Shown piece after piece: positions 3,961 to 47,969 of a DNA stretch of 64,000 bases. This DNA is from Eubacteriales bacterium. Lineage in GTDB: Bacteria; Bacillota; Clostridia; Oscillospirales; CAG-272. Every line of letters starts with the position of its first letter. Position 1 is the first letter of the stretch. Position numbers and translations under genes: made by a program. The stretch spans positions 40,370-104,369 of the forward strand of contig JAZTXO010000152.1 in NCBI GenBank assembly GCA_045636445.1, in the 5' to 3' direction. The notes beneath the pieces are model-generated. The model was not told where the DNA came from and did not search any database. It worked only from the letters and a program-made list of their open reading frames with translations.

Positions 3961-3983
3961 TACAAATTCCTCAAGTTTTAGTA

Positions 3984-4023: not shown

Positions 4024-4077
4024 GATGTAGAAAGTCTTGTGAGACTTCTTACACATATATGGTGCGGGAGAATTATA

Positions 4078-4257: not shown

Positions 4258-4266
4258 AGGTACGGG

Positions 4267-4375: not shown

Positions 4376-4386
4376 TGGTTATTACT

Positions 4387-5754: not shown

Positions 5755-5777
5755 TTTTGTAAACCTTTCTTTACGGT

Positions 5778-10967: not shown

Positions 10968-10982
10968 ATTTTTCTCCTAAAT

Positions 10983-11729: not shown

Positions 11730-12240
11730 CAGCCTTGTCAAAGAAGCCGGGAATCGGAAGCACCTTCATTCCCTCTTCGCTTATCTCCTTTATAAAATCG
11801 GGCACGTGAGGAATTAAAACCTCTTGCCCCTCATAGCTTACAGTATAAATTCTTCTGCCCGCAATCTCCGAAACGTCGGAAATCTCGCCTAAAGCTTCAC
11901 CGCTTTCAGCGTGGAAAACTGGCAGACCAACCATGTCCGCTATAAACATTTCCCCCTTTTTCAAGGGCAAATCGTTTCTGTGAAGATAGAAAACTCTGCC
12001 TCTTTGAGCTATGGCTTCCTCTCTTGAAGATATTCCCTCAAGAGTCAAAAGCAGAAACTGCCCGGAAACCGAAGCCGACTTTACCGCCATTTCGGTAAAC
12101 GAGCCGTCACGGTTTTTGAAAAACACACGCTTTTGCTTTGCAAGAACCTTTGCGTTGTCGCAAAAATGCTCGACCTTCAAACAGCCGGCAACGCCGTGAG
12201 CCGTACATATTCTTCCGCCCTCAAGATACTCCGCTTTCAT
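11719..12240 (-). CDS. rimM: 16S rRNA processing protein RimM
   Basis: About 173 aa with a PRC-barrel C-terminus. rimM-trmD adjacency. The ATG at 12240 is preceded by GGAG. Confidence 0.85.
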   Translation of the reverse strand: MKAEYLEGGRICTAHGVAGCLKVEHFCDNAKVLAKQKRVFFKNRDGSFTEMAVKSASVSGQFLLLTLEGISSREEAIAQRGRVFYLHRNDLPLKKGEMFIADMVGLPVFHAESGEALGEISDVSEIAGRRIYTVSYEGQEVLIPHVPDFIKEISEEGMKVLPIPGFFDKADEV

Positions 12241-25759: not shown

Positions 25760-25837
25760 TTGCACCTTTCAATTATAATTAGTATAAATAATGCTGCGTT
25801 ATAAGGTCGAACGGTTGCAATTTTTGAGGTGAAAACT

Positions 25838-29780: not shown

Positions 29781-31010
29781 TTAAACTATGCCGTACTTTT
29801 TACCGTATTCCTTAAGAACGAAGTCCATATCCTTGTCGCCTCTGCCCGAAAGACAAATAAGAACAGAGCCGTGGTCACGCTCCTTTGCGAGCTTTATTCC
29901 GTAAGCTACTGCGTGAGAGCTTTCGATTGCGGGAATAATACCCTCCATTCTGGAAAGGTTGAAGAATGCGTCAACCGCCTCGTCGTCACCGACGGTATCG
30001 TATTTAACTCTGCCCAATTCCTGAAGGAACGCGTGTTCAGGGCCGGACGAGGGGTAGTCAAGTCCGGATGCTACCGAGTAAACGGGAGCAGGCTCGCCCT
30101 TTTCGTCCTTAAGCATTATACTGTTAAAGCCGTGCATAATGCCCTCTGTGCCGTACTTAAGACTTGCGGCATGGTCGCCTAAGGTTTCGCCTCTTCCGAG
30201 AGGCTCGATTCCGATTATCTCAACGGGGTCGTTAAGGAAGCCCGAGAACATACCCATAGAGTTTGAACCGCCGCCAACACAAGCAACTACCGTGTCGGGA
30301 AGATGTCCTGTCATTTCAAGGAACTGCTCTCTTGACTCCTCGCCCACAACGTGCTGGAAGTCACGAACCATCATAGGGAAAGGATGAGGGCCGACAACCG
30401 AGCCGATACAGTAGATTGCGTCCTTGTATTCTCTGGCGTATGCTTCAAAGGCTGCGTCAACCGCTTCTTTAAGGGTTGCAAGACCGTGAGTTACCTCAAC
30501 AACGTTCGCTCCGAGAATTTTCATTCTTGCAACGTTGGGCGCTTGCTTCTTAATGTCAACAGAACCCATATAAATATCGCACTCAAGTCCGAAGTATGCC
30601 GCAGCGGTAGCAAGAGCAACACCGTGCTGACCTGCGCCCGTCTCGGCAATAACCTTCTTCTTGCCCATATATTTTGCAAGAAGAGCCTCGCCCATACAGT
30701 GGTTAAGCTTGTGAGCGCCGGAATGGTTCAAATCCTCACGCTTTACGTAAAGCTGAACGCCGCCAAGACTGTTGGAAAGACGCTCAAGGTGAGAAATGGG
30801 AGTAGGTCTACCCTGAAATTCCTTACGGATTCTTCTAAGCTCCGCAATAAATTTTCTGGATTGGCAGATGGTAAAGTAAGCCTGGGTTATCTCTTCCATT
30901 GCCGCTTTAAGCTCGGGAGCAATAAAAGCTCCGCCATATCTTCCGTAGTAGCCGTTTATGTCAGGGTATCTTTGCAAATAAGTATCAAAATCAATATCGT
31001 TAAATTTCAT
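29781..31010 (-). CDS. trpB: Tryptophan synthase beta chain (stand-alone)
   Basis: 409 aa. PLP-lysine region [15 protein letters not shown], plus GAGQHGVA and GGGSN motifs. No trpA or other trp genes adjacent. Confidence 0.9.
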
Positions 31011-31102: not shown

Positions 31103-31356
31103 ACAAAAAGCCCCAAGCATATATAGTATGCTCGGGGCGAAAATATCCGCGGTGCCACCCGAATTCAGGACGAGTCCTCTTACGCACAAATCTATGCGTT
31201 TTGCAGATAACGGTGCAACCGTCGAAGCCTACTCTTTAAAATTTCGGTTCGCCCTCGAAAGTCCATTCACCGTGCCGTTTTATACCGCACTCTCACCGTC
31301 TGCGGCTCGCTTTGATAACCCTATACTCGGTTACTACTCTTTCTCATAGGTTTGAT
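31103..31356 (-). promoter_or_regulatory. T-box riboswitch leader, Trp specifier (UGG), with terminator/antiterminator
   Basis: Minus strand shows a Stem I start ...GAGAAAGAGUAGUAACC..., a distal GGUGAGAG, and a specifier context GGUGAA-UGG-AC (UGG = complement of 31263-31265). The conserved T-box AAUUCGGGUGGCACCGCGG is the complement of 31147-31165. The terminator GCCCCGAGCAU...AUGCUUGGGGC (31110-31138) is followed by UUUUUG. Confidence 0.9.
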
Positions 31357-33088: not shown

Positions 33089-34834
33089 TTATTTATCCGA
33101 AGTTTCCAAGGTGTCAAGAGTAGTTACGGTAGGCCACTGGAGGAATGCATCAAGCGCCAACTCGTAATAGGTTACCTCATCGAAATATGCGCTGTCGTAG
33201 TAATCGTGAAGCTCCTTGTATCTGTCAGCCTCAAACTCTGCCCAAGCATCCTCGGAATAGGTGGACTTGTCTATGTTGTATTCCGTGCAATACTGAAGAA
33301 TGTACTCGTCGAAGTATTCCTTTTCAACCTCTACCTTCTTTGCTGCGTGCTCTTGCGCAGTAGGAACGATATTCTCGTTTCTCATAATGTAGTAGAGAAT
33401 AAGTCTTTCCTTAACAAGTCCCTCGGACATAGAACGGAGAACGCTTCTCCAATCCTTGTTTTCGGCATATTCAAGGCCAAGGTAGATTATAGCGTACTCG
33501 TCAACAGTTTCGCAGGTCTTGCTAGTGCCGAGAGCATCGGAAATAACACCGCCGCTCTGCTCGAACTGATAGAGAACGTCATTGTAGTACTCGTTGTAAA
33601 TAGAGTCAACCTTAGATGCGGGATACTTGCTTACTACCGAAACGTTCTCGTTATGGTAGTGCTCCCACATAGCTTCCTCAAGCTTGGTTCTGTATATCTC
33701 GTTATACTCGTCGTCAAGAAGCTTCTTTACGTGCTGACGAAGCTGACTTACTCTGTCACCCTCGAACGCTGCAAGGTCTTCCGCTGTAACTCCGAAATCG
33801 TCTTTGCCGAGATTTTCCTCAACAAATTCGTTAGTGAGCTTCTGCTCCTCGTATTCTACGACCGACTGAATGTAAACCTCAAAACGAGCGTCCTTGTTGT
33901 TAAGGTTGGTCATTCCGTAATCATAGGGGAAGTAGCAGTCAACGAGAATGTAATTACCCTCTTTTTCGCAGGTGGTAGCAAAGTCCACCTTAAGAGAGGA
34001 ATAGTTGTATTTTTTGCCCGAAACAGTACCTTCAAAGGTAACGCCGTCCTTCGCTCCTACCGTAAGAGTAAGGAGCTTGTCGTAGAAGCCATCGCCGTAC
34101 TTTGCGTCGATTTTTTCCTTGCCGTCAGCAAGAACAACTCTCTCTGCGCTGATTTTGGTCTTGTCCTTGTCGGCTGTGCTTCCGTCGGGAACTTTGGTGT
34201 AGCTGATATATACTACCTGGTCTGCGCTTACATTACCTTCGGTTATTCTAACGAACTTGTTAGCAGCGGAAAACTCCACGCCCGAAAGGTTGACCTCAAA
34301 ACCGGGAACAAATTTATTTGAGCCTATTTCAAGAGAAGCATAAACGTAGTTTCCGCTGGAGTCGGTACTTGCAAAGTTGCACATATTGTCAACGTAAACC
34401 TCTTCACCGTTAGCTCCTATAAGATATCCGCGATAGAAGATGTTGACAACGTCACCGGGAGTGATTGTTCCCGATTCCTGGGCAACTCCGTTATGCAAAA
34501 CCGCACCCTTTTTTGATGCAAGAAGGTTAAGTACTGCAACGTCGGTGTCAATTTCTCTGGGCTTCGCAATTGTAAGATTAACCTTATAATCCTTGTAAAG
34601 AGCCTGATCTATGGAAATATATTTCGAAAGGTCGCTTGAAAGGTAGTCGAAATTCTTATCTTCTTCCTTCTTGGTATGATCTATTATAATGAAAATCAAG
34701 CCGACAATAAAAGCTACCGCAAGCAGAGCAGAGGTTACAATACTGATAATCGCAGACGTGCTGAGCTTAGGCTTTGTGTCGATCAGTTGTGATTTTTGCT
34801 TTTTTACTTTGTTAATGTTTTTGTTTTTACTCAC
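33089..34834 (-). CDS. Membrane-anchored, extracytoplasmic trigger-factor-like / FKBP-type PPIase-like protein
   Basis: 581 aa. Basic N-terminus plus a single TM (AIISIVTSALLAVAFIVGLIFIII). LEIGSNKFVPGFEVNLSGV resembles the FKBP/trigger-factor PPIase signature (G..FIPGFE..L.G). It is followed by KLTNEFVEENLG... and a long helical region like the trigger-factor C-terminal arms. GTG start. Confidence 0.55.
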   Translation of the reverse strand: MSKNKNINKVKKQKSQLIDTKPKLSTSAIISIVTSALLAVAFIVGLIFIIIDHTKKEEDKNFDYLSSDLSKYISIDQALYKDYKVNLTIAKPREIDTDVAVLNLLASKKGAVLHNGVAQESGTITPGDVVNIFYRGYLIGANGEEVYVDNMCNFASTDSSGNYVYASLEIGSNKFVPGFEVNLSGVEFSAANKFVRITEGNVSADQVVYISYTKVPDGSTADKDKTKISAERVVLADGKEKIDAKYGDGFYDKLLTLTVGAKDGVTFEGTVSGKKYNYSSLKVDFATTCEKEGNYILVDCYFPYDYGMTNLNNKDARFEVYIQSVVEYEEQKLTNEFVEENLGKDDFGVTAEDLAAFEGDRVSQLRQHVKKLLDDEYNEIYRTKLEEAMWEHYHNENVSVVSKYPASKVDSIYNEYYNDVLYQFEQSGGVISDALGTSKTCETVDEYAIIYLGLEYAENKDWRSVLRSMSEGLVKERLILYYIMRNENIVPTAQEHAAKKVEVEKEYFDEYILQYCTEYNIDKSTYSEDAWAEFEADRYKELHDYYDSAYFDEVTYYELALDAFLQWPTVTTLDTLETSDK

Positions 34835-34888: not shown

Positions 34889-35323
34889 TTAAGCAAAAGA
34901 ATCTGCAAACGCAGTTGCAAGAGCGTCGCATCGCTCGTTGTAGTCGTGACCGTTGTGTCCTTTAACCCAGACGAATTCAACCGTATGAGTTTCGGTCAGA
35001 GCATAAAGTCTTTCCCAAAGGTCGGGATTTTTAAGAGCATCCTTTCCTCGACGCCACCCCGCCTTTTTCCAGGACTCAACCCATCCCAAAAGGAATGCGT
35101 CCACAAGATATTTGGAGTCGGAATAAAGAGTTACTTTGCAAGGCTCTTTAAGAGCTTCAAGACCGCAAATTGCCGCCATAAGCTCCATTCGGTTGTTAGT
35201 GGTACTTGGCTCACCGCCCGAAAGCTCTCTTTCATACTTTCCCCAAACGAGAATAGCTCCGTAGCCGCCTCGACCGGGATTTCCTCGACAAGCTCCGTCG
35301 GTATAAAGCTGAACTTCTTTCAT
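34889..35323 (-). CDS. rnhA: Ribonuclease HI
   Basis: 144 aa. [16 protein letters not shown]..., TNNRMELMA and the DSKYL motif are the canonical RNase H catalytic D-E-D-D pattern. Confidence 0.92.
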
Positions 35324-35356: not shown

Positions 35357-35393
35357 CAAAAAAACGGACGAGCTGTTGTTCGTCCGTTTTTTT
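35357..35393. terminator. Bidirectional intrinsic terminator
   Basis: A8-CGGACG...CGTCCG-T7. Lies after the 737-aa lipoprotein gene on the minus strand. Confidence 0.8.
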
Positions 35394-35437: not shown

Positions 35438-37651
35438 TCAGTTAGACTCGGAAGTAGTCTCACTCTTGATGGAGTACTTGATGTTGAAGAAATCAAGATA
35501 CTTTCCGTCTTCGGTGTACTTGTACTCGTAGTGCTTGTGATCATCCTCGCCGGTCTCAACACGGTTTGCCATAAGGAGATAGTCGAGAATGTTGGTAATC
35601 TGGATAGCAGCGCGAACGTTGCTCTCACCGTAGTAATTCAAATTCTGCTCAACAGCCTTCTTACCTATAAGATCCTTGTAATCCTTAAGTGCGGCATCAT
35701 CGAAGTAGAAGTGATTTGCGAAGAAGAGAGCCTCGTCGTACTCGCTGTAATCAGCGCCGTCGTAATTCTCTTCATCATAGAGGAACTTGTTAGCTTCGAT
35801 CTGGCCGGGCATCTTTGCATCAGCTTCGGGCGCAAGAGCCTTAGCTACAACGTAAATCTGAATAATAGGAAGAACAAGCTCTTTTGCCTGCTTTTCAAGA
35901 GCGCCGTCCTTGGCAATCTGTGCTTCAAGGAATGCGTCAAATCCGCCGTTATCCTCATACTCTTCGTAATAGGTCAAGCCGGTGGAAGAATTTGTTCCGG
36001 TGTGGAACTCGTACTCATACTGGTTCTCAAGATGAGCAATAGCCTCTTCAAGAAGACCTTCGGGATACTTGTTGGATTCCTTAAGAATAACGTTCTTCTG
36101 GATCATTGCCCAGATCTCTTTACCAACCTTCTCTACGATTTCGCTATCGTATGCTTCCTTAAGGTTGTGATAAACGTCCTTTTCGTACTGCTCAACAACG
36201 GTAGCTGCAAAGCCCTTCTCGTCGTTTTCCTTGGTAGCCTTGAGAATTTCGTCAATCTTCTTTTCAGCTGCGTCTCTTGCAGTTTCCCAAGCGGTCTTTG
36301 CATCGTCGCGAGCCTTTACTGCGTCTTCATAAGACTTCTTTGCATTGTCTCTTGCAGTCTTCTGCGCATCGGTTGCTCCCTCGCCTGCGTCGGTAACTGC
36401 CTTTTCAGCAGCATCGTATGCGGTCTTGGTGGTAGTTACAACCTTTTCAGCAGCATCATACTTGCTCTTAAGATCCTTGATCTTGGTATCGGTATTATCT
36501 GCATAAACCTGTACAAGCTCCTCAACAAGAGTCTTAACGGTCTTATCACCGTTCTTGTAAGCCTCGTCGGAGAATACGTCGAGAGAGGTAGCGGTGATCT
36601 TGTTAGCAAGAGCCTCAAGAAGGATAGACTTTGCGTCAATATCGGATACGTTATAGAAGTATACGGGGAAGATGTGATACTTTACGGTAGTGTCCTTGGG
36701 AATTACAACCTCTGCTGCGTTTTCACCATGGATGTTGTCCATCTTTGCGCTGGTGAGCTTAAGCTCAGCGGTGGTCTTGTAATCAAAGGTAATTTCGTTA
36801 CCCTCGTCTTCAACTGCGAAGAGGATCTTGAAGTTGGTGTAGGTGTAGGTCTTGTCACCCTCGGTCACGTCAAAGTTCTTGGTCTTTTCGGTATCGCTTA
36901 CCTTAACCTCAACGAAGCTGCCGATTTTGACGGTGTTGTTGGTGTTAAGAAGAACGTCTGCGATCTGCTTTTCAATACCGTCTTCAGCGTGAAGGTTGAT
37001 CTTTACGCAGTTAGCAACCTCTTTGGTTGTATCTGCCTTGTCCTTCTCGTAACGGGTGAAGGAAACGAATACAGACTTGAAGGACTCCTTGGTAACTGCA
37101 ACGGTAGCAGAAGCCGAGGTCTTATATCCCTGAATGTCTACGGGGCTGAAAGCAGCCTCCTCGCCCTCGCCGGTAGTGCCGTATGCTGCGATTGCATTCT
37201 TGATAGCAACGCTGAGCTTGTTAGCCTTTGCATCCTCAACGTCGATTGCGGAAAGCTTAACGCTGTTCTTGGGAGATGCGGTCTCCTTCATATACTCGTC
37301 TACATCGTAAGCGTAGGTTACGCCATCCTTTTCGTAGGTTGCGTAGTACGCATAGTAAACGGTGTCGTTAAGGTCGAGTTTACCTTCGGTAAGCTTATCG
37401 CGCTTGTTCTGCGCATAGGTAGCAAGAGAAGAGTAAATAGACTCCTTAACCTTCTTCTGTCTTGTAGCTTCATCGGTAGTGAAGCTGCCATCCTCAATTT
37501 TAATATCCTGAAGAGAACCAAGGAATCCGTCAAGCAAAGTAACGTATTCGCTGTAATCCTCCTCTGCGTAGTTAAAGGGCTTGGAACAGCTTGCAAAGGC
37601 TGTTGTAACCATAACTACAAGAAGAAGTAAAGCAATAATCTTGTTTTTCAT
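35438..37651 (-). CDS. Large lipoprotein (737 aa), unknown function; C-terminal half helical/chaperone-like
   Basis: Signal peptide with lipobox MKNKIIALLLLVVMVTTAFA-SC. Central Ala/Asp/Lys-rich coiled segment with repeated YDAAEK. The C-terminal helical region is loosely similar to the C-terminal half of the 581-aa protein. Confidence 0.55.
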   Translation of the reverse strand: MKNKIIALLLLVVMVTTAFASCSKPFNYAEEDYSEYVTLLDGFLGSLQDIKIEDGSFTTDEATRQKKVKESIYSSLATYAQNKRDKLTEGKLDLNDTVYYAYYATYEKDGVTYAYDVDEYMKETASPKNSVKLSAIDVEDAKANKLSVAIKNAIAAYGTTGEGEEAAFSPVDIQGYKTSASATVAVTKESFKSVFVSFTRYEKDKADTTKEVANCVKINLHAEDGIEKQIADVLLNTNNTVKIGSFVEVKVSDTEKTKNFDVTEGDKTYTYTNFKILFAVEDEGNEITFDYKTTAELKLTSAKMDNIHGENAAEVVIPKDTTVKYHIFPVYFYNVSDIDAKSILLEALANKITATSLDVFSDEAYKNGDKTVKTLVEELVQVYADNTDTKIKDLKSKYDAAEKVVTTTKTAYDAAEKAVTDAGEGATDAQKTARDNAKKSYEDAVKARDDAKTAWETARDAAEKKIDEILKATKENDEKGFAATVVEQYEKDVYHNLKEAYDSEIVEKVGKEIWAMIQKNVILKESNKYPEGLLEEAIAHLENQYEYEFHTGTNSSTGLTYYEEYEDNGGFDAFLEAQIAKDGALEKQAKELVLPIIQIYVVAKALAPEADAKMPGQIEANKFLYDEENYDGADYSEYDEALFFANHFYFDDAALKDYKDLIGKKAVEQNLNYYGESNVRAAIQITNILDYLLMANRVETGEDDHKHYEYKYTEDGKYLDFFNIKYSIKSETTSESN

Positions 37652-37698: not shown

Positions 37699-37727
37699 AT
37701 TATACCATACAATAAGCAAAAATGCAA
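37699..37727 (-). promoter_or_regulatory. Promoter for the 737-aa lipoprotein gene (TTGCAT-17-TATAAT with TG extension)
   Basis: Minus strand reads TTGCAT (37727-37722), 17-nt spacer ending in TGG, TATAAT (37704-37699). Confidence 0.5.
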
Positions 37728-37759
37728 ATGTTTTTTTGATTTTTTAAAAATATTTTTAC

Positions 37760-40714
37760 TTAATCTGCATATCCGCCGCCTTCGCCTATGGGATAACCGT
37801 TCACAAGCTCGTAAAATGCCCTAACAACAGTCTTAAAGGCGTAGTTGGAAATGGTGAAGTAGCAGCTTTCGCTCACACCGTCGAATACTGACACGGCAAC
37901 CTTGCCGTCGTCGGTGTAGTAGAAGCTGTAAGTGTTGTGAGTGTTTGAGCCCTCAACCTCATAATCCAGCGTCATAACCGGAGCTTTTGCCATAGCCTTC
38001 TCGGCTTCCTCTTTCGAAAGAGTTCCGGTATAGTTAGTTCCGTAAATAAGGAGAAGAACGTCCTTGAAGCTGGAATCGCCAAGCCAGTCAAATCCCTCGG
38101 TCTGATTGTTGGGATCGCTGTCTCTGTAATTATATATTGCGTGAATATGCATACTTTCCTGACCGGTAGCGCGAAGTCTTTGAACAAGAAGCGTTTCGGT
38201 AAGATTGCTTCCGCTTACCGATGCGTAAACCGTAGCTGCAATATATTCCTGTTTAGAAACTATATTGGGATCATCGCCGGGATCATAGTTAAGTCTGCCT
38301 CTTGAACCGTCGGCATAGGTTACTATCCAAACGGTCGGATGAGCCACGTTGAAGTCATACTTGCCTCTGAAGCCATCCATATTGAAGTCAACCGAAAGCT
38401 TTTTCACGTATTCCTGGTCAACAAGCATTATGTCGCGTTTTGCCCAGAAATCAACAAAGTTCTCCTCAACGTAATCAAGGGTTTCGGCATCCATTTCAAC
38501 GATAATGTCGTACATATCCGAGCCAACGTATCTCTTGCCCTCGGAATTTGCTTCGCTGATATAAAGAGTGAATGTAACTTGGCTTTCACCCTCGTAATTG
38601 TTAGTGCTGTCCGGGAATCGGGGAATCGAGAACTCTACGGTATAAGCGTACAGACCGTAGTTTTTCATATTAGCGGGAGTAAGTCCGGTAGCAACCACCT
38701 TCGATCCCGAAAGTCCCTCGAATCCGAGAGAGGATGTGCCGAGAAGAGTGCCGCTTAACACTTTTATTACTCTGTCGCAGCGACGCCAGTCAACGGCATA
38801 GGAAGCGTAAGGGTGCATCTCGTCAATTTCGTTAAGAGTATTAACGTGAATGTCACCGCCGTAATAGAGATCGGGACTTGCGGTATACGCAAAGGCAGCC
38901 ACAGCCTCGCTCTCGATGAAGTAATCAATAGACTTTATTTCATAGGTAGTAAAGCTCTTCATTACCTGGTGATACCTATCGGAGGTGTAGGCGGTTTTGT
39001 CCTTCTCGTAAACGCCGTTTTGGTCAATCTGCAACCCAAGAAGCGTCGCCTTTATTCCCTTCTCAAGCTCGTCGGAGTTCTCGTCTGAAAGAGAAAGGTC
39101 AACTATCATAGTATCCTCGCTTATTACCTCTCCGTCATAAAGCATCTGGTAAACGAAGGCTACGATAGAACTGCTTGAAATCTTTTTAATTTCCGTAAAG
39201 GTCGCCTTGTCGTATATGTGAGATACGTGCTTTATTTTAAGCTCGTACACCGAAGGGGTGGAGTTTTCGGAGCTGTAAACGATATCAAACTCCAGAGGCT
39301 CGGAAAGTTCGCCAACCTGCCCGCCAAGAAGAGCAAGACGCACACTTTCGGGTACACGCTCGTCGGTAAGGTCGATAACAGCGTGAAGCTCGTCTGCATC
39401 AGCTCCCTCGTATTTAACCTCCTCACCGTCAAAGGTGCAGGAGTATCTTACCTTAACGTAGAAATTGCTTCCTCCGTCAGCGGTGTTGCAATCAATGCCG
39501 TCGGGGTTGACGAAGGCTTCGATTTCGTAGATTTTATAAGAGTAGTTCTTGCCTTCAACCGCAACGTTACGGTCGAAAATTACAGTTGAAACAAGGTTGT
39601 GATTGTAATCATCTCTGACCTCTTTGCCCACAAGGTTTCTGATGAAGCCCGAATACTCGTCGATTCCGGAAATATAATCCAGATCTACCTCGGTGGCGCG
39701 GTCAAAAACGGAGGCGTATCCGTTTTCGTCAACGGTCATTTTCTCATCGTCTTTTTCAACCTCGCTTATAGCGTAAGGCGAGGTGATTATATTAGTGGTA
39801 ATGACAACCTTTGCCTTTTCTTTTACAACGTCACCCGTCTTGCCGTAAACGGTGTTTTTCCATTGTCTGTACGAGGGGGTGTACTGGGGAGTTGTGTTCT
39901 GGTCGCCGTTGGAAAGATTTCCGGACATAATAATCTTGGGAGCAACGAAGTTGCTAAATCCGGTAAGAGCGTATTTAAAGTTTTCTGCGCTTGAAGAAAT
40001 GTATACGGTGCTATCCGCGCTGTCTCTCTTCTCGCCCTCGAAGATGTCTCCGCTGAGCTTAAGATAATAGCCGACGCCGGTAACAAGCTTGTTACCGATA
40101 TACATAGTCATTTTCCTTGTAACAGACTCGGTCTTTCCCGTTTCGGGATTCAAAACCGACTCAAGATAGGTGAAGGTCACCATCTCGCGGCTCTCTTTAT
40201 CAAGGCCGTACGCCTTAAGCTGCTCATTATAGGCTTCAAGCTTTTCTTCTCTGCTCACCGCATTTTCGGGAGCTGTAAGAGTAATTTTAGAATCATAGGA
40301 AGCATTGGCAAGGGCGTGAAGCACGTAAGAGATCTTATACACGTTCATTCCGTCGTCGGTAACCGAATAAAGAGATTCGTACTTAAATCCCGGCTCGCTA
40401 AGGCATATAGAGGGGAAATATCTTCTCTTGTCACCGTTTTCGTCTTCATAGAAAAGGTGGAACGTGCCGTCAACAAGCTGAGCGCCGATAAATCCCTCGT
40501 GAGCGTCTATTCCAAAACTTTGAATTTGGCTTGAGCTTATCGGATTATAGATGTATTCGGTATTGCTTGAACCGAGTGTTACCTCGGGAGCTGTTTTGTT
40601 TTTAATAAGAAACGAAACAACGAAATATCCCGCAACAAGAAGAGCAAGTGCCACAGAGGTAATAATGATTGCAAGAATGCTTTTTGATTTTCTGTTTTTC
40701 TTAACTTGTATCAT
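37760..40714 (-). CDS. N-terminally anchored 984-aa extracytoplasmic protein, DUF4340-like by position
   Basis: Single N-terminal TM (SILAIIITSVALALLVAGYFVVSFLI) followed by about 940 aa of beta-rich sequence. It is the last gene of the ABC-2/GldG operon, the position where DUF4340 proteins are usually found. The family call is by context, not by motif. Confidence 0.45.
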   Translation of the reverse strand: MIQVKKNRKSKSILAIIITSVALALLVAGYFVVSFLIKNKTAPEVTLGSSNTEYIYNPISSSQIQSFGIDAHEGFIGAQLVDGTFHLFYEDENGDKRRYFPSICLSEPGFKYESLYSVTDDGMNVYKISYVLHALANASYDSKITLTAPENAVSREEKLEAYNEQLKAYGLDKESREMVTFTYLESVLNPETGKTESVTRKMTMYIGNKLVTGVGYYLKLSGDIFEGEKRDSADSTVYISSSAENFKYALTGFSNFVAPKIIMSGNLSNGDQNTTPQYTPSYRQWKNTVYGKTGDVVKEKAKVVITTNIITSPYAISEVEKDDEKMTVDENGYASVFDRATEVDLDYISGIDEYSGFIRNLVGKEVRDDYNHNLVSTVIFDRNVAVEGKNYSYKIYEIEAFVNPDGIDCNTADGGSNFYVKVRYSCTFDGEEVKYEGADADELHAVIDLTDERVPESVRLALLGGQVGELSEPLEFDIVYSSENSTPSVYELKIKHVSHIYDKATFTEIKKISSSSIVAFVYQMLYDGEVISEDTMIVDLSLSDENSDELEKGIKATLLGLQIDQNGVYEKDKTAYTSDRYHQVMKSFTTYEIKSIDYFIESEAVAAFAYTASPDLYYGGDIHVNTLNEIDEMHPYASYAVDWRRCDRVIKVLSGTLLGTSSLGFEGLSGSKVVATGLTPANMKNYGLYAYTVEFSIPRFPDSTNNYEGESQVTFTLYISEANSEGKRYVGSDMYDIIVEMDAETLDYVEENFVDFWAKRDIMLVDQEYVKKLSVDFNMDGFRGKYDFNVAHPTVWIVTYADGSRGRLNYDPGDDPNIVSKQEYIAATVYASVSGSNLTETLLVQRLRATGQESMHIHAIYNYRDSDPNNQTEGFDWLGDSSFKDVLLLIYGTNYTGTLSKEEAEKAMAKAPVMTLDYEVEGSNTHNTYSFYYTDDGKVAVSVFDGVSESCYFTISNYAFKTVVRAFYELVNGYPIGEGGGYAD

Positions 40715-40724
40715 ATATACCTCC

Positions 40725-42356
40725 TTACAAATATCTGCGTTTTACGTATACAACAACGCCTGCAGCAAGTGCGATTACAGGTAATGCAAAGAGAATTACC
40801 GAGATCGTCTTGATCTCGCTCTTTTTCTCGGAATCGAATTCAAGAGTTGTATCCGCAAGGAACTTACCGCCGTAGCTGTCGAAGTTCATTGAAGTTCCGC
40901 CAAGCTCGGAGGAAGCATATCTGTCGTTAAAGATCATTTCTTCTATAAGCAAAGCCATTATTTCGCTGTTTGCGTAAGAATAATTGCCAAGCACCTCGTT
41001 AGAGAAGAAGCTTGCGCTGTTAACGCAGAAAATGTTCGATCGAGTAGCAGTATTGGTGTAGCTGTCAAGCTGGTATCTGCCGGTCATTGCCGCAAGAATC
41101 AGCTTTCCTGAATTTTCGGGAGACGAATACTCGCCCTCGGGACTCTTTGCCATAGCAATCGCAGAATCGTAAGAGCTCATAAACTCCATAAACATTCTCT
41201 CCGAAGAGTTGCCCGCCTCAATGAGAGCGTCGCCTTCACGGAAAGCGCTTTTAATATATCCCGCATCGTCAAATATAACGCCTGCTGCGCTGGGAAGAGA
41301 TGCGAAATTGCTGTAAACCAAAGCTCCGAAGCTATCCTCGTCGGTGCTGTACTCGCCAAGAATAGTATCAATGCTTTCGTCTGTTGATTCAACGTGATTT
41401 TTGTCGTCGTTGACAACGGTATCGGTGAAATGGAATCCCCAATCGGCAAGGAATGCATCAAGCGCAGGGTGACGGGACGAGCCGTCATCAAGCAAAGCAT
41501 GATCTCTTGCAACCATTACCGAGCCCTGACGAGCCACGAGATAACGGTCTATCATTTCGATCTCGGAACGGTAGTTTATATCGTCAAGCTTATCGGGATC
41601 AATATCAAAATCCTCTCTGGGATTGTTGATAACAAGGAGAACGCAGTCCTCCGGCACGCCTCCCGCTTCCGCAAGATTAACCGTTTTTACCTCAAGGCCT
41701 CTGCCCATAAGAAGGTCGTAAAGAGCCTGAGCCTTATGGTTTTCTTCTCTGGAGGGATCGGAGATATCGTAATAGGTTTCGCCGTGACCTACCGTAAAGT
41801 AGGCAACCGGACGCTCCACCGCAGTTACCGACAGAATGTAAGATGCCATCTTATATTCACCGTTATAGCTGCTGAGAGCCGTTTCACTTCCCGCCCAGAA
41901 GCTTACGGGCTTCTGAATACGGTATCTTCCGCCGTACGAAATAATTACGTCGCCGGGATCGATTACGGAAAGAGAGGTAGGCTTGTATTTCGAAACCTTG
42001 GTAGGCTCGTAAATAACGTTGACCTCTTCCACCTCAATATTATCAAACCTCTTTTCAAGCTGAAGCGCCATGAAATAGGTAAGTCTTGTTATATCTGAAG
42101 CAATAAGCTCGTCGGGATCGGCGCAGAAGGTTATCGTAACCTCGTCCTCAAGATCGTCAATGAAGGAGCACTCGCGTATCATTGCGTCGGTAAGCGAGTA
42201 AAGTCCCTCGGGAGTCAGGTCAACGTAAAGGCTTTTTCTTAAACCCAAGGAGGGCATAAGAAGGTTAATCGCCACAACGGCAACGACCAAAACGACAGTA
42301 AGAACCCCGAAAAGCTTTGATCTTAAGCTTCGTATTCCTTTTTTGTTATTATTCAT
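40725..42356 (-). CDS. GldG-like ABC-transporter auxiliary protein (copy 2)
   Basis: 543 aa. N-terminal TM plus a C-terminal TM followed by KRRYL, with a large extracytoplasmic domain between them. Same bitopic-ends architecture as GldG / ABC_transp_aux. 4-nt gap to the upstream paralogue. Confidence 0.65.
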   Translation of the reverse strand: MNNNKKGIRSLRSKLFGVLTVVLVVAVVAINLLMPSLGLRKSLYVDLTPEGLYSLTDAMIRECSFIDDLEDEVTITFCADPDELIASDITRLTYFMALQLEKRFDNIEVEEVNVIYEPTKVSKYKPTSLSVIDPGDVIISYGGRYRIQKPVSFWAGSETALSSYNGEYKMASYILSVTAVERPVAYFTVGHGETYYDISDPSREENHKAQALYDLLMGRGLEVKTVNLAEAGGVPEDCVLLVINNPREDFDIDPDKLDDINYRSEIEMIDRYLVARQGSVMVARDHALLDDGSSRHPALDAFLADWGFHFTDTVVNDDKNHVESTDESIDTILGEYSTDEDSFGALVYSNFASLPSAAGVIFDDAGYIKSAFREGDALIEAGNSSERMFMEFMSSYDSAIAMAKSPEGEYSSPENSGKLILAAMTGRYQLDSYTNTATRSNIFCVNSASFFSNEVLGNYSYANSEIMALLIEEMIFNDRYASSELGGTSMNFDSYGGKFLADTTLEFDSEKKSEIKTISVILFALPVIALAAGVVVYVKRRYL

Positions 42357-42360
42357 CGCT

Positions 42361-43959
42361 TTATCTGTTCTTTCTTCTTATAATTGTAACGGTTCCGACA
42401 GCGGCAAGCACCACCGGTATTGCAAGGAGCATACAGGTATAGAGAATAGACGTACCGAGGGTAAGGTTTTCAAGTCTTTCCTCCTGCATTTCCACACAGT
42501 CTATTCCGTAAGGCATATCAGGGCCGTCATAAAACTCATCGTAGAGTGCATATAAAAAGTCTTTGTTTGCATAGTTGTTGCTTACCATTGCATCGCTTGC
42601 TGCAAGATAAACGCTGGAAATAAATATCATTTTTGCGCTGCGGTCGAAGTTTACCTTCTTCTCCGAGCAGGCAATTACGGTGTGAGGTCCGTCCTCGCCC
42701 TCGTTCTCTCCGCCTGCAACAAGACTTGCGGAAGCAGAGGAAGTGAGCAAAGGTCTTGCTCCAAGGCTTTCGTTGCATTCAAGGGCAGCCGCATCGTTGA
42801 TTATAACGCTGCCGCCAAACCCGTCGATCTTATTTTTGATAGACTGGGCAACCGAATTGTCCGCATAATCTGCAAGAAGCGTAAAGCCGGTAAAGCCTTG
42901 AGTGTTAACACTCTGGTTAAGGTCTTTTACCATAAGACGCTCGCCGTCATCGTTGGTTTTAACGCTTATTCCGAACTCCTCGGAAACAAATTCCTCAAGT
43001 CGGGGAAGACTCTTGGCAAGGGGATCGAGAATAACGTAAAACGCTCCGCCGTTGTCGGAATATTCCTTAAGTCTCATAAGTTCGCTAACGTAATTATCGT
43101 TGGCAGCCTTTTCAAAATCGGTCTTGGGATTGGATATTATAACAAATGCCGCATCCTCGGGAACAGATTCCTTGCGCAGGTTGATTTCGTCAATGTAATA
43201 ACCCGCATAAAGCAGAGAATAGTAGAAATTAGTGCTGGGAACTTCACCGTGTCCGGTTGTAAAGTAAACGGTTTCGTGCTGGTCGTTTATTACCCAGAAT
43301 GCCATCGCAGCAAACACCTCTTCACCGTTGTAGGAGGTTACGTAGCTGTTGGCGTCAAGGGTAAAGAAGTCAACGAAAGCAGAGCTTCCCGAAACAACTC
43401 TTATATTAGAGCGAAGCAGGTTGCCGCTTTGGTCAAAGGTTTCGCACTCGAAAATAACGCTGCTTCTTGAAATTTTGTATTCGTCATAAATGGGATTTCC
43501 CGATTTATCCAGAAGAATTTCACCCGATGCATCCTTACGGGCAACCTTCTGATACTTTTCGGGGCTGAATTTCTCGCCCGATGCATCATCGTATTCGAGA
43601 GTAAAAATGTTAGCGTATCTTATGGAAATAAAATCGCTGTATTTATCTGCATAGTTCATTACGGTCTCACGAACGAACTTACCCTCGGAATGGTTCTGAA
43701 TGTCTGCCTCGCTCATACAGAAAGTAATAGTCAGATGCTTTCCTTGAGCCGCAGCATTGTCAAAATCTTCCTTAACCGCATCGCTAATGCTGAGGTCTTC
43801 TTTTTCAGCAACGGTAGCGCTCGGTCTGGTGTAGACGTAAAGCATATATATAAATGCGTTTGCAAAGATAACCGCCGCTACTATTATCGCCGTCATAACA
43901 GATGGCGAGAAGTTACGGCTGCGGACTACCCTTGTAACCGCTTTCTTAAAATTCATCAT
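42361..43959 (-). CDS. GldG-like ABC-transporter auxiliary protein (copy 1)
   Basis: 532 aa. N-terminal TM (VMTAIIVAAVIFANAFIYMLYVY) and C-terminal TM (...LLAIPVVLAAVGTVTIIRRKNR). Follows the ABC-2 permease. Confidence 0.65.
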   Translation of the reverse strand: MMNFKKAVTRVVRSRNFSPSVMTAIIVAAVIFANAFIYMLYVYTRPSATVAEKEDLSISDAVKEDFDNAAAQGKHLTITFCMSEADIQNHSEGKFVRETVMNYADKYSDFISIRYANIFTLEYDDASGEKFSPEKYQKVARKDASGEILLDKSGNPIYDEYKISRSSVIFECETFDQSGNLLRSNIRVVSGSSAFVDFFTLDANSYVTSYNGEEVFAAMAFWVINDQHETVYFTTGHGEVPSTNFYYSLLYAGYYIDEINLRKESVPEDAAFVIISNPKTDFEKAANDNYVSELMRLKEYSDNGGAFYVILDPLAKSLPRLEEFVSEEFGISVKTNDDGERLMVKDLNQSVNTQGFTGFTLLADYADNSVAQSIKNKIDGFGGSVIINDAAALECNESLGARPLLTSSASASLVAGGENEGEDGPHTVIACSEKKVNFDRSAKMIFISSVYLAASDAMVSNNYANKDFLYALYDEFYDGPDMPYGIDCVEMQEERLENLTLGTSILYTCMLLAIPVVLAAVGTVTIIRRKNR

Positions 43960-43987
43960 AACTCAGATTTCTTCCTTTTCGATTTGA

Positions 43988-44698
43988 TCAGTTATATCTG
44001 CGGCGGTCGTAAACACGTACGGTAAGATAAAGGAACAGCGCGCCGAGAGTAACGTAGAATATGATTGCAGACCAATCAAAATATCCTGCGGTAAAGGCGT
44101 TAAATCTGGAGAATATGGAAAGAGAGTCAAGCACGTATCTTATATCGTAGCTTGCGGGGATAAGACTGGAAAGAAGACCGGTCACAAGGAATGCAAATAT
44201 TATCGCTATTGTTCCTACCGCAGCGGAAAGCTGGTTTTCGGTAAGGGACGAAACGAAAAGTCCTATGGAAATAAACACCGCGCCAACCAAAAGAAGAGCG
44301 ACAATATTTCCAAGAAGCACAGCGCCCTTAAAGGTTATTGCGTAAGGTATAAGCAAAAGGAAATAAAGGGAGGTAAAAACAAGAGCCATAGCAAACATAG
44401 CGTAAGCCGCAAGGAATTTACCCAATACCATACCCGTAAGCGATACGGGGGAGGTAAGAACGAGCTGCTCGGTTTTAAGCTTTCGCTCTTCGCTGAAGGA
44501 TTTCATCGTAAGAAGAGGAAGCACGATTGCCGAAAACAGAAGCATAGCCACGAAATAGCTCGTCACGTTTGCCGACATAGAAAACAAGGTGGTAAAGCAG
44601 AATACTGCCGCAGCCATAGTGAGAAATACAACTAAAAATACATAACCCACAACGCCCGTAAAGTAAGAGCGGAATTCTCTTTTAAAAATTGCTAACAT
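43988..44698 (-). CDS. ABC-2 type transporter permease (GldF-like)
   Basis: 236 aa with 6 TM. The N-terminus MLAIFKREFRSYFTGVVGYVFLVVF is typical of the ABC-2 / GldF family. Confidence 0.8.
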   Translation of the reverse strand: MLAIFKREFRSYFTGVVGYVFLVVFLTMAAAVFCFTTLFSMSANVTSYFVAMLLFSAIVLPLLTMKSFSEERKLKTEQLVLTSPVSLTGMVLGKFLAAYAMFAMALVFTSLYFLLLIPYAITFKGAVLLGNIVALLLVGAVFISIGLFVSSLTENQLSAAVGTIAIIFAFLVTGLLSSLIPASYDIRYVLDSLSIFSRFNAFTAGYFDWSAIIFYVTLGALFLYLTVRVYDRRRYN

Positions 44699-44712
44699 TT
44701 CTTCTTTCTCCT

Positions 44713-45708
44713 TTAGTGAGCTTTTCTCATTTTGTTTTTCTTCTGCTCTGCTCCCGACTCGGACTTGTCCACAAGGTTGATGAATATGGTTTCAAGGTCG
44801 GTTCCTATGGCAGAAAGTCCAACGATAGGCCAATTGTTTGCCGCGCAAGCGCTGAAGATGGATTTTCTCATATCAATACCGGGCTGGCTTTCCGCAACGT
44901 AAACGTATGCTTCGCCGTCTCTTGCGCCGGTAGCGTCAATCTTCTTAACCGCGCCGAGAGCGCCAACAGCGGGAACAACGTCTTTAGGCTGAGCGCATAT
45001 CTTTATTTCGTAGCGGTATCCGCCCTCGATAGTCTTGGTAAGGTCGGCAGTCTTTGCATCGGCTATAATGTTACCCTTGTTGATAATTATAATTCTTTCG
45101 CAAACGGCTTGTACCTCTGCAAGAATATGGGTGGAAAGTATTACTGTGTGACGGCGGCCGAGAGTTCTTATAAGGTTTCTGACCTCCAGAATCTGCTTCG
45201 GGTCAAGACCTACCGTAGGCTCGTCGAAAATTATGATTTTAGGATCGCCTATAAGAGCCTGGGCAATACCTACGCGCTGCTTGTAACCCTTGGAAAGGTT
45301 GCGTATAAGTCTGCTCTTGACCTCGGTGAGCTTTGCTACCGAAAGGATCTCGTCAATATGAGGCTTTCTTTCAAGCTTACAGCCTTTCAGCTCGTAAACG
45401 AAATCAAGATATTCTCTTACAGTCATCTCGGGATAAATGGGCGGCTGCTCGGGCAAAAATCCGATGTTCCTTTTTGCCTCGATGGGATCTTCAAGTATAT
45501 CAACTCCGTTTATGTATGCCACGCCCGACGTTGCCGAAAGGTAACCTGTCAGAATATTCATCGTCGTACTCTTACCAGCTCCGTTAGGGCCGAGAAGACC
45601 AACGATCTCTCCTTCGTTTACCTCAAAAGAAATGTCGTTAAGAGCGTAATTTGTTCCGTATTTTTTTACAAGATTTTCAATCTTAATAACGGGATTAGTT
45701 GCTTCCAT
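44713..45708 (-). CDS. ABC transporter ATP-binding protein (ABC-2/GldA-like)
   Basis: 331 aa. Walker A GPNGAGKST, signature LSKGYKQRV, Walker B IIIFDEPTVGLD, and a C-terminal accessory domain. Confidence 0.92.
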   Translation of the reverse strand: MEATNPVIKIENLVKKYGTNYALNDISFEVNEGEIVGLLGPNGAGKSTTMNILTGYLSATSGVAYINGVDILEDPIEAKRNIGFLPEQPPIYPEMTVREYLDFVYELKGCKLERKPHIDEILSVAKLTEVKSRLIRNLSKGYKQRVGIAQALIGDPKIIIFDEPTVGLDPKQILEVRNLIRTLGRRHTVILSTHILAEVQAVCERIIIINKGNIIADAKTADLTKTIEGGYRYEIKICAQPKDVVPAVGALGAVKKIDATGARDGEAYVYVAESQPGIDMRKSIFSACAANNWPIVGLSAIGTDLETIFINLVDKSESGAEQKKNKMRKAH

Positions 45709-45904
45709 TTTTATTCTCCAAACTTTAATAAAAAATCAAATGCGACAGCCAAAAGGGCATATCGCGAATTTTCGCTATACGATTATAGCATATAAATATA
45801 AATAAAATATGAACATTTTAATAGAAATATAAAATAATTTGAAAATATATCTTACATTTGTATATCACAGGTGCGAAAGGGGGCAAAAACAAGGCTGCAA
45901 ATGC

Positions 45905-45933
45905 TTGACAAAAGCGTTTATTCGTTGTATAAT
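45905..45933 (+). promoter_or_regulatory. Consensus promoter (TTGACA-17-TATAAT) for trpS
   Basis: TTGACA at 45905-45910, 17-nt spacer, TATAAT at 45928-45933. The leader is only about 40 nt, so there is no room for a T-box. Confidence 0.65.
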
Positions 45934-45979: not shown

Positions 45980-46975
45980 ATGACCGGCGATAAGAAAACA
46001 GTCTTTTCCGGTGTTCAGCCCTCAGGCAACCTGACTATCGGAAATTACCTTGGAGCGATTAAGAATTTTTCACGCTTCTCCGAGGATTATAAAACCTTCT
46101 ACTGCGTTGTGGACCTTCACGCAATCACCGTAAGGCAGGTTCCCGCAGAATTAAGAAAGAGAACCTACGAAACTCTTGCTCTTTATATGGCGTGCGGACT
46201 TGATGAGAAGAAAAACACACTTTTCGTTCAGTCCCACGTTCCGGCTCACGCAGAGCTTGGCTGGATGCTCAACTGCTACACTATGTTCGGTGAGCTTTCC
46301 CGTATGACGCAGTTCAAGGATAAGAGCCAGAAGCATTCCGAAAATATAAATGCGGGACTCTTCACCTACCCCACCCTTATGGCGGCTGATATACTTCTTT
46401 ATCAAACCGACCTTGTTCCTGTGGGAATAGACCAAAAGCAGCATCTTGAACTTGCAAGAGACATCGCCGAAAGATTTAATCAAGTCTATGGCGACACCTT
46501 CGTTATTCCCGAAGGATACATTCCTACCGACACAATGAAAATTATGTCTCTTGCCGAGCCTACCGCAAAAATGTCAAAATCCGACCCCAACGCAAATGCG
46601 GTTGTGTATATCCTTGATTCCAAGGATGACGTTATGCGTAAATTCAAGAGAGCCGTTACCGACTCGGATTCTTCCGTAAGATACTCCGAGGACAAACCCG
46701 GCATCTCCAACCTCATGACTATCTACCGCGCCTTTACCGGCAAGAGCTTCGAGGAAATCGAGAGGGAGTTTGACGGCCGCGGTTACGGCGATTTCAAACT
46801 TGCCGTAGGCGAAGCTTGCGCTGACGGACTTGCTCCCGTAAGAGAAGAATTTGCACGTCTTATGGCAGACAAAGCTTTCCTTGAGCAGGTTATGAAAAAC
46901 GGAGCAGATGAAGCTGCTTACTACGCGCGTAAAACTATGTCAAAGGTCAGAAGAAAGATTGGTTTTGTAAACTAA
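45980..46975 (+). CDS. trpS: Tryptophan--tRNA ligase
   Basis: 331 aa from the ATG at 45980. SGVQPSGNLTIGNYLGAIKNF is the class-I HIGH-equivalent and KMSKS is present. The track's longer N-terminus crosses the promoter. Confidence 0.93.
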   Translation: MTGDKKTVFSGVQPSGNLTIGNYLGAIKNFSRFSEDYKTFYCVVDLHAITVRQVPAELRKRTYETLALYMACGLDEKKNTLFVQSHVPAHAELGWMLNCYTMFGELSRMTQFKDKSQKHSENINAGLFTYPTLMAADILLYQTDLVPVGIDQKQHLELARDIAERFNQVYGDTFVIPEGYIPTDTMKIMSLAEPTAKMSKSDPNANAVVYILDSKDDVMRKFKRAVTDSDSSVRYSEDKPGISNLMTIYRAFTGKSFEEIEREFDGRGYGDFKLAVGEACADGLAPVREEFARLMADKAFLEQVMKNGADEAAYYARKTMSKVRRKIGFVN

Positions 46976-47101: not shown

Positions 47102-47422
47102 TTACTTCTTTGTATATTTCTGACCTGCGAACTCAAAACCGTCATCATGCTTTGTGTAGTAGAACTCAACGGTTTCATCGTCATCATTGGTAAGATAGAT
47201 CTTCTTTCTGCTGGGATCGTCTTCGTCTTTTTTGATTTCGTATGTATATTCGTAGCTGCTACCACCGGTGGTATAAACGAAATTCTTACCGGAAATTTCT
47301 ACAACGCTTCCGTCAGAAGCAACGTACGTACCTTTGTCAATCTTCTTTCCGCAAGAACCGAGAACAAGAACCGAGCCAAGCAAAAGAACGCATACAAGTA
47401 ATGTGGATATGATTTTTTTCAT
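47102..47422 (-). CDS. Small lipoprotein (106 aa), paralogue A
   Basis: MKKIISTLLVCVLLLGSVLVLG-SC lipobox. The mature part GTYVASDGSVVEISGKNFVY... is paralogous to 47646-47969. Confidence 0.75.
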   Translation of the reverse strand: MKKIISTLLVCVLLLGSVLVLGSCGKKIDKGTYVASDGSVVEISGKNFVYTTGGSSYEYTYEIKKDEDDPSRKKIYLTNDDDETVEFYYTKHDDGFEFAGQKYTKK

Positions 47423-47645: not shown

Positions 47646-47969
47646 TTATTGCTTATAGAACTTCTCTCCGTCAAGCTCGATATACTGGCCGTCGCTGTCG
47701 CTTCCCTTGGAGAAGTCCATCTCGCCGTTAAGCTCTTCAGCCAAGTCTCCCTCGAAATCAAAGGTAATGGTGTCACCGCTGATTTTGTAAGTACCGTCGA
47801 TAGATACGCCGAACATTTCCACTTCTACGTTTTTACCGCTGAAAGTAAAGGCAACCAAACCGCTTTCATCTTCGTAAGTGCCGGAAAGAGTGCTTCCGCA
47901 AGAAGAAAGAACAAGTACGCTGCTGAGAATCATTACGCAAACGAGAACCGCTGATAAGATTTTTTTCAT
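47646..47969 (-). CDS. Small lipoprotein (107 aa), paralogue B
   Basis: MKKILSAVLVCVMILSSVLVLS-SC lipobox, followed by GTYEDESGLVAFTFSGKNVEV... Confidence 0.75.
   Translation of the reverse strand: MKKILSAVLVCVMILSSVLVLSSCGSTLSGTYEDESGLVAFTFSGKNVEVEMFGVSIDGTYKISGDTITFDFEGDLAEELNGEMDFSKGSDSDGQYIELDGEKFYKQ

Follow-up and report, generated by a model that had tools for sequence, protein, structure and literature searches.

A predicted five-gene operon of uncultured Clostridia encodes a GldA/GldF-like ATP-binding cassette transporter with two GldG-like paralogs and an enlarged DUF4340-family protein

The subject of this analysis is a stretch of 64,000 nucleotides (nt) of contig JAZTXO010000152.1 from the Clostridia assembly GCA_045636445.1, to which we refer in its entirety as the window. 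On its minus strand, five open reading frames (ORFs) that are separated by intergenic gaps of 14, 28, 4 and 10 nt encode an ATP-binding cassette (ABC) ATPase, an ABC-2 permease, two GldG-like proteins of about 540 amino acids (aa), here called G1 and G2, and a long protein of 984 aa (Table 1). These genes had been put forward as a candidate envelope system in a note generated by a model from the DNA letters alone (the original prediction), and their coordinates and spacing proved to be exactly as described there. All five ORFs begin with ATG and most of them are preceded by a purine-rich ribosome-binding stretch. A hydropathy scan also matched the topologies that had been claimed: no transmembrane (TM) segment was seen in the ATPase, and about six hydrophobic segments in the permease, which has a separate ATPase gene beside it; G1 and G2 have one TM segment close to each end (residues 17-44 and 499-529, and 10-41 and 513-540, respectively); and the 984-aa protein is anchored by one TM segment at its N terminus (residues 9-39). 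The large domains are predicted to face outwards, given the basic residues that border the TM segments on their cytoplasmic side. A promoter-like element precedes the ATPase gene, in whose vicinity the consensus promoter scan listed only a weaker site (45843-45815), and no terminator-like sites were found between the five core genes. Judging from this layout, the five genes would form one operon.

Table 1. Positions of the predicted operon, of the modules of its last protein and of the downstream genes and signals in the window
Feature	Coordinates	Strand	Basis
Promoter-like element of the extended -10 type (TGCTATAAT), ~70 nt before the start codon of the ATPase gene	45782..45790	-	read from sequence
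ABC ATPase, GldA-like, 331 aa	44713..45708	-	Pfam ABC_tran; NCBIfam GldA best match
ABC-2 permease, GldF-like, 236 aa, ~6 TM	43988..44698	-	Pfam ABC2_membrane_2/_3; NCBIfam GldF best
G1, GldG-like bitopic protein, 532 aa, external domain ~450 aa	42361..43959	-	ABC_transp_aux / GIFT-domain
G2, second GldG-like bitopic protein, 543 aa	40725..42356	-	ABC_transp_aux
984-aa single-pass, N-terminally anchored, beta-rich putative DUF4340-family protein with large insertion	37760..40714	-	orthologs, hhalign
TM anchor of the 984-aa protein, residues 10-39, basic cytoplasmic tail before it	40598..40687	-	hydropathy; helix 10-39 in both models
N-terminal module, residues ~50-297, common to shorter DUF4340 proteins; first DUF4340 stretch ~120-300	39824..40567	-	hhalign
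Lineage-specific insertion, residues ~298-680, tandem ~90-residue beta-rich repeats	38675..39823	-	missing in L078/L090 homologs
C-terminal module, residues ~681-978, common to shorter DUF4340 proteins	37781..38674	-	hhalign
Promoter-like site TTTGCA, 18-nt spacer, TGgTATAAT, within the 108-nt gap before the lipoprotein gene	37699..37728	-	scan
737-aa lipoprotein (lipobox ...AFASC), trigger-factor-like, coiled-coil insert	35438..37651	-	profile-profile
Hairpin with flanking A-run and T-run, bidirectional intrinsic terminator, after the lipoprotein gene	35357..35390	-	read from sequence; scan listed + strand only
RNase HI (rnhA), 144 aa, between the two trigger-factor-like genes	34889..35323	-	Pfam RNase_H in orthologs
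581-aa N-terminally anchored trigger-factor-like foldase (FKBP + Trigger_C), TM residues 23-56	33089..34834	-	NCBIfam, Pfam
Strong intrinsic terminator, 11-bp stem and T-run, 7 nt after the 581-aa stop codon	33057..33082	-	scan

The translated ATPase has intact Walker A (GPNGAGKST), signature (LSKGYKQR), Walker B (IIIFDEP) and H-loop motifs and scored 114 bits against Pfam ABC_tran. Its top NCBIfam match, over the full length of the protein, was GldA (TIGR03522, 312.3 bits), the equivalog cut-off of which (402.6 bits) was missed. The permease exceeded the Pfam gathering scores of both ABC2_membrane_2 (35.9 against 27.2 bits) and ABC2_membrane_3 (35.6 against 31.6 bits), which bears out the ABC-2 assignment made beforehand, and its top NCBIfam match was GldF (TIGR03518, 112.7 bits, residues 1-229), with an equivalog cut-off of 288.5 bits that was likewise missed and a runner-up at only 18.8 bits. 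The permease retrieved nothing when its sequence was searched against the PDB. The proposed GldA/GldF type is therefore supported by top matches that lead by a wide margin, but at a level below the equivalog cut-off for either protein. The ATPase results also bear on a different explanation, according to which the operon would encode a conventional ABC-2 pump, of the DrrAB, NatAB or lantibiotic-protection type, that serves in efflux or immunity and handles a drug, a bacteriocin or an ion. Matches of the ATPase to DrrA, its second NCBIfam family (205.9 bits, cut-off 312.45), and to the lantibiotic-protection ATPase family galliderm_ABC (181.8 bits, cut-off 309.75) are in keeping with such a pump, but both scores lie far under that for GldA as well as under their own cut-offs, and the permease matches GldF only. 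Moreover, pumps of this kind come without GldG-like and DUF4340 partners, and the genes lie in a vertically inherited core region, found in more than 50 species, with no mobile element and no regulatory or biosynthetic gene close by. We consider an efflux or immunity function highly improbable; from the NCBIfam scores and the core genomic context, the operon is not a known drug or bacteriocin exporter, an identity that the original prediction had itself named among the findings that would overturn it.

G1 and G2 had been described as paralogs, and they do align from the first TM segment to the last (BLASTP E 2e-11; profile-profile alignment with hhalign: probability 100%, E 9.6e-56, 465 columns). 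Both match the Pfam family ABC_transp_aux (PF09822) over the first third of the model only, G2 with 36.1 bits and thus over the gathering score of 34.7, G1 with 29.9 bits and under it. When orthologs were scanned and matches counted at E <= 0.01, the family was recovered in 49 of 50 G1 orthologs (best E 1.4e-13) and in 48 of 51 G2 orthologs, 97 of 101 combined; five G1 orthologs also match IFT52_GIFT and two match OST48_N. Some of the G2 orthologs are named 'Gldg family protein' in NCBI records. On the other hand, an NCBIfam scan of G1 and G2 returned no family at E <= 0.01, the GldG model included, so that the earlier assignment to GldG and ABC_transp_aux stands on the bitopic architecture, the Pfam score of G2 and the orthologs, and fails for the NCBIfam GldG model and for G1 itself at the Pfam gathering score. 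A PDB sequence search with G2 retrieved nothing, and a homolog search with the G2 profile gave at least 120 matches, of which all that were listed are orthologs from the clade of the window. Conserved motifs are found in both proteins: H237/E239 ('HGE') and P278/D281 ('NPxxDF') are invariant in G1, and in G2 H191/G192/E193 are nearly invariant and N244/P246/D249 invariant. Since both proteins keep the HGE and NPxxDF motifs in invariant or nearly invariant form, neither of them looks like a decaying copy, and G1 and G2 appear to be old, divergent GldG paralogs that are both still constrained.

The block extends well beyond this genome. We compared 56 related loci, namely L001, 53 species-level genome loci with one genome per species (L002-L054), and L055 and L056, and wherever the contig suffices, gene order and strand are constant in the sequence ATPase, permease, G1, G2, 984-aa protein, a protein of ~700 aa, RNase HI and a protein of ~580 aa. 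Median gaps between the core genes are 16.5, 18, 8 and 11 nt, the median distance from the 984-aa gene to the next gene is 152 nt, and trpS usually lies divergently upstream of the block. The five-gene block, whose conservation outside this lineage had been proposed as a test, was syntenic in all 56 related loci examined. Adjacency of the five genes by chance can be ruled out by this recurrence of order, strand and tight spacing. A word-indexed search had yielded 16 relatives of the 984-aa protein; an exhaustive profile search yielded 374 clusters at 50% identity, nearly all of them full-length at 930-1110 aa. The carriers of the 53 loci are metagenome-assembled genomes (MAGs), mainly from ruminant, yak, horse and human gut, that are labelled Clostridia, Eubacteriales, Oscillospiraceae or 'uncultured Ruminococcus', plus one Coriobacteriaceae. 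This last record (L051, CAVEOF010000016.1) has a full Clostridia-type block under the label 'Coriobacteriaceae bacterium', which probably reflects an error of binning or labelling at the source. Identity to the window's proteins in the related loci is 82-97% for the tryptophanyl-tRNA synthetase TrpRS, 61-89% for the ATPase, 56-89% for the permease, 36-80% for G2, 32-75% for G1 and 23-70% for the 984-aa protein, and gene order is strictly kept despite divergence of the latter down to 23-30% identity. This drop in identity from the cytoplasm outwards is what would be expected if the outer proteins are exposed at the surface.

Outgroup loci were taken from a metagenome scan with the G2 profile, and their genes were typed by local hidden Markov model (HMM) searches and a Pfam scan. 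Loci L082 and L085 encode an ATPase, a permease, one GldG-like protein of 480 aa (ABC_transp_aux with 50 bits, and DUF7088) and a 342-aa DUF4340 protein (110.8 bits), and L088 encodes an ATPase, a 727-aa fusion of permease and GldG (3696-5879, plus strand) and then a DUF4340 protein of 231 aa (62 bits). A permease, one GldG-like protein and a 568-aa DUF4340 protein (81.4 bits in two stretches) make up L078, and L090 comprises an ATPase, a permease, one GldG-like protein of 778 aa and a DUF4340 protein of 804 aa (9316-11730, plus strand; 55.7 bits in two stretches). In all five loci, as in the window, the DUF4340 gene directly follows the GldG-like gene. Components and order as in the window are seen in these cassettes, and also in SAR11 (OG1814; bioRxiv 10.64898/2025.12.11.693642) and in Verrucomicrobium spinosum (VSP_RS39600; PMC12283558). 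Each protein of the window operon, G1 and G2 included, is homologous to its outgroup counterpart, and the DUF4340 protein is single-pass and N-terminally anchored in both. The window differs from the four-gene cassette in that GldG is duplicated, the DUF4340 protein has 984 aa as compared to 231-804 aa, and foldase genes, which are described below, are fixed alongside. With the G1 and G2 profiles, the single-copy GldG-like proteins of the outgroups reach nearly equal scores (242 and 237 bits in L090, for example), in agreement with a duplication that took place in an ancestor of the clade to which the window belongs, and some of these proteins also match IFT52_GIFT and OST48_N. In the 804-aa protein of L090 we noticed an apparent N-terminal Listeria-Bacteroides repeat (Flg_new, 45.7 bits) before the anchor region; the called start may lie too far upstream.

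A direct scan of the window's 984-aa protein against Pfam and NCBIfam gave no match, DUF4340 (PF14238) included. Its orthologs P0002 (77% identical, 35.7 bits), P0025 (44.8 bits), P0021 (35.8 bits) and P0018 (28.5 bits) do exceed the DUF4340 gathering score of 25 bits, and these matches map to residues ~120-300. In hhalign, the family profile aligned with the 568-aa DUF4340 protein of L078 in two parts, residues 1-297 with its residues 28-249 (probability 97.6%) and residues 681-978 with 360-564 (97.9%), and in the same way with the 804-aa protein of L090 (residues 1-264, 96.3%; residues 602-976 with 395-798, 97.1%). Single-sequence comparisons of the short DUF4340 proteins of L082 (342 aa) and L088 (231 aa) with the family profile were not significant, so the link to DUF4340 runs through the intermediate-length proteins of L078 and L090, and the putative DUF4340 membership of the 984-aa protein rests on transitive homology. 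The DUF4340 identity claimed for the long terminal protein hence holds for orthologs above the gathering score and for the alignments at both ends, and lacks a direct match of the window's own protein. Because the L078 and L090 proteins align to its two ends, the 984-aa protein can be described as a DUF4340 protein with an insertion of ~380 residues (~298-680), and by this comparison the DUF4340 protein would have roughly doubled in size through an insertion between two ancestral modules. Repeats were detected within the insertion by hhalign, with residues 360-451 aligning to 461-542 (94.9%), 289-378 to 500-575 (90.1%) and 354-403 to 551-601 (79%). The conservation profile of the family is strongest at residues ~660-760, within the C-terminal module, and the invariant positions hold aromatic residues, Gly or Pro, none of which looks catalytic. 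A word-indexed homolog search with the N-terminal DUF4340-like sub-alignment gave two matches, both uninformative, and the four papers that a literature search found to mention DUF4340 give no function for the domain.

An AlphaFold model of the 984-aa protein that was built from 13 sequences was mediocre (predicted local distance difference test, pLDDT, 74; predicted template modelling score, pTM, 0.48), and an AlphaFold2 model built from 68 sequences was confident (pLDDT 87.5, pTM 0.81). Secondary structure assigned to the models by DSSP agrees with the description of this protein as beta-rich in the original prediction. The confident model implies that the ectodomain is a defined, well-packed multi-domain structure, rather than beads on a string.

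Our preferred reading, which we regard as modestly probable, is that the operon represents an enlarged, lineage-specific version of the widespread four-gene cassette of ABC ATPase, ABC-2 permease, GldG-like protein and DUF4340 protein, a family that includes the Flavobacterium gliding proteins GldA, GldF and GldG, and that it acts by ATP-driven pushing of an envelope component into an assembly of ectodomains. The core would be (ATPase)2(permease)2 with one GldG-like protein per permease protomer, and a physical 1:1 association of permease and GldG is argued for by L088, where the two are fused in the manner of a 'Rosetta stone'. G1 would sit on one protomer and G2 on the other, so that two-fold symmetry would be broken outside and an asymmetric cap would result, and the single-pass 984-aa protein would dock on this cap. 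Powered by ATP hydrolysis in the cytoplasm, the permease would then move an envelope component out of the membrane, or off it, and into the extracytoplasmic assembly. We expect this component to be non-protein and probably lipid-linked or polymeric, and the look of the ectodomains suggests a role in structure or ligand handling rather than in catalysis. Published work on related proteins includes the findings that membrane localisation of GldA needs GldF and GldG (PMC9127263), that a DUF4340 protein of SAR11 is predicted to be a subunit of the neighbouring ABC transporter (bioRxiv 10.64898/2025.12.11.693642) and that a DUF4340 domain of V. spinosum is reported to be essential (PMC12283558). 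Several results weigh against the proposal. The NCBIfam equivalog cut-offs were missed for GldA and GldF alike and the GldG model was not matched; in Pfam, G1 of the window falls short of the gathering score and a direct match of the 984-aa protein is lacking; and Foldseek searches of the PDB with both models returned only spurious beta-rich matches (DDB1 and TcdA1; probability <= 0.15, TM <= 0.14), hence no structural analogue that would hint at a ligand. In addition, ABC-2 permeases also serve as exporters of drugs, ions or teichoic acids, and the family alone does not fix the function.

In the main rival of this proposal, the motor would transport nothing and ATP would instead cycle the ectodomains of G1, G2 and the 984-aa protein as they reach into or across the wall to do work there. 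Mechanotransmission of this kind is the wall-spanning scaffold idea of the original prediction, a reasonable hypothesis, and would resemble the action of NosDFY, FtsEX or LolCDE in other ABC classes. It would fit the very large extracytoplasmic mass (~450 + 450 + 945 residues) on a minimal permease of 236 aa without large loops, the rigid and well-packed model of the 984-aa protein, a permease whose best Pfam family is ABC2_membrane_2, and a tandem beta-repeat insertion that lengthens the ectodomain specifically in this clade. However, Pfam scans revealed no wall-binding, S-layer homology (SLH) or sortase motif in any of the proteins, and no solved relative of the permease emerged from the PDB sequence search. 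NosDFY would be a loose parallel, since it too couples a small 6-TM permease of ABC-2 type to a big, ATP-driven, beta-rich extracytoplasmic partner, but neither PDB sequence search nor Foldseek detected any sequence or fold relationship with the window's proteins. NosD is a beta-helix protein that handles copper and sulfur. On balance we consider mechanotransmission doubtful and retain ATP-driven pushing of an envelope component as the preferred reading.

Downstream of the operon lie the genes for a 737-aa lipoprotein, RNase HI and a 581-aa anchored protein. The latter matches the trigger factor model TIGR00115 (E 6.7e-15, residues 291-509), and among 46 of its orthologs Trigger_C was found in 29 and FKBP_C in 25. 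A profile-profile comparison links the 737-aa to the 581-aa family (probability 99.85%, E 1.3e-30, 438 columns). The extracytoplasmic chaperone-like character that had been ascribed to the downstream genes was borne out by these matches and can be given more precisely as trigger-factor-like: by homology, the 737-aa and 581-aa proteins would be two membrane-tethered extracytoplasmic foldases flanking rnhA. Such proteins may act in this clade as stand-ins for PrsA-type foldases. In nearly all related loci that reach so far, the 737-aa gene follows the 984-aa gene, with no match in L048 and L052, and rnhA, the orthologs of which are 68-91% identical in more than 45 species, occupies the same place in every locus reaching it. 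The linkage of the ABC genes to the foldase genes thus appears to be a conserved, lineage-specific synteny.

Such synteny raises the possibility that the eight conserved genes are one module for envelope-protein assembly, in which the ABC complex and the two tethered foldases together fold, stabilise or install surface proteins. Essentially all related loci hold the full order through to the 581-aa gene, both foldases are extracytoplasmic paralogs of the FKBP and Trigger_C kind, and there is a parallel in Flavobacterium gliding, which requires GldAFG jointly with the FKBP lipoprotein GldI. In F. johnsoniae, the stability of GldK needs GldF, and GldI carries a peptidyl-prolyl isomerase (PPIase) domain (PMC9127263). 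Against a single module, the outgroup cassettes L082, L085, L088 and L090 have no such genes downstream, and in the related loci the gap before the lipoprotein gene is wider (median 152 nt), with a promoter-like site of its own in the window. The stretch from the 984-aa gene to this site (37699..37728) showed no terminator; one follows the lipoprotein gene, and a strong terminator ends the 581-aa gene. Furthermore, the block encloses rnhA, an unrelated housekeeping gene, and is bordered by trpS and rnf genes, for which reason synteny by common descent suffices as an explanation. We therefore regard the eight-gene module as unlikely, and the membership of the 737-aa lipoprotein in the ABC system as uncertain.

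Elsewhere in the window, a fused ABC ATPase-permease of 1053 aa and of the MacB/FtsEX type (13407-16568, plus strand; 250 bits against the MacB model, under its cut-off) represents a second, different ABC envelope system. The trpS gene (45980-46975, plus strand) has a perfect sigma-70 consensus promoter (45905-45933) and a leader of ~45 nt without a T-box. The sole Rfam match in the window is a T-box leader (RF00230, 109 bits) at 31130-31356 on the minus strand, upstream of trpB (29781-31010). Two adjacent small lipoproteins of 106 and 107 aa (47102-47422 and 47646-47969, both on the minus strand) are paralogs with 49% identity over 67 residues (E 1e-14). Six large ORFs of 444-1529 aa are without a family match, three of which were scanned against Pfam and NCBIfam (9147-10967, 27821-29641 and 57238-61827, all minus strand) and three against Pfam only (25829-27538, plus strand; 55810-57144 and 61986-63788, minus strand); two of the six are 606 aa long and share no relationship. 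Existing families cover this lineage poorly. The original prediction took the host to be a spore-former; no sporulation genes turned up among the window proteins that were scanned against families.

Since about 2000, gliding in Bacteroidota has been known to require GldA, GldF and GldG, with no substrate identified, and related cassettes of ABC-2, GldG-like and DUF4340 proteins occur in many phyla. The three protein types and their gene order in Flavobacterium johnsoniae match the operon described here, and GldG of that species has the architecture of G1 and G2, in which a large ABC_transp_aux domain lies outside the membrane between two terminal TM segments. Unlike the F. johnsoniae system, which has one GldG, the window operon has two GldG paralogs and a DUF4340 protein, and its host belongs to a Clostridia lineage, not to the Bacteroidota. 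Among the proteins scanned in the 64-kb window there were no gld or spr genes and there was no sign of genes for gliding or for a type IX secretion system (T9SS). Because the equivalog tests for GldA, GldF and GldG fail, the operon should not be called a gliding transporter. A relationship of GldG to the non-catalytic scaffold domains of IFT52 and OST48 is already known; the matches of some G1 orthologs and outgroup GldG-like proteins to these GIFT-domain subunits of eukaryotic scaffolds are weak and sub-threshold, and the cellular context is entirely different.

All carriers of the window-type block that were found are uncultured, which sets a practical limit, and the family offers natural variants that are useful for dissection: a duplicated and probably asymmetric GldG pair, a DUF4340 insertion that is separable, and a permease-GldG fusion in a relative. 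That gut Clostridia enclosed by a wall, with no gliding apparatus in view, carry the cassette as a vertically inherited core operon points to a general envelope role. In the most far-reaching interpretation, which we hold to be improbable, the whole block of ABC-2 motor, asymmetric G1/G2 cap, rigid DUF4340 ectodomain of ~945 residues and two foldases would be one previously unrecognised envelope machine of a large clade of uncultured Clostridia, in which an ATP-driven complex of GldAFG type would be a wall-reaching platform for the export and/or installation of a surface component, with the help of dedicated post-translocation chaperones. If this were true, it would reveal an ancestral, gliding-independent job of the GldAFG family.

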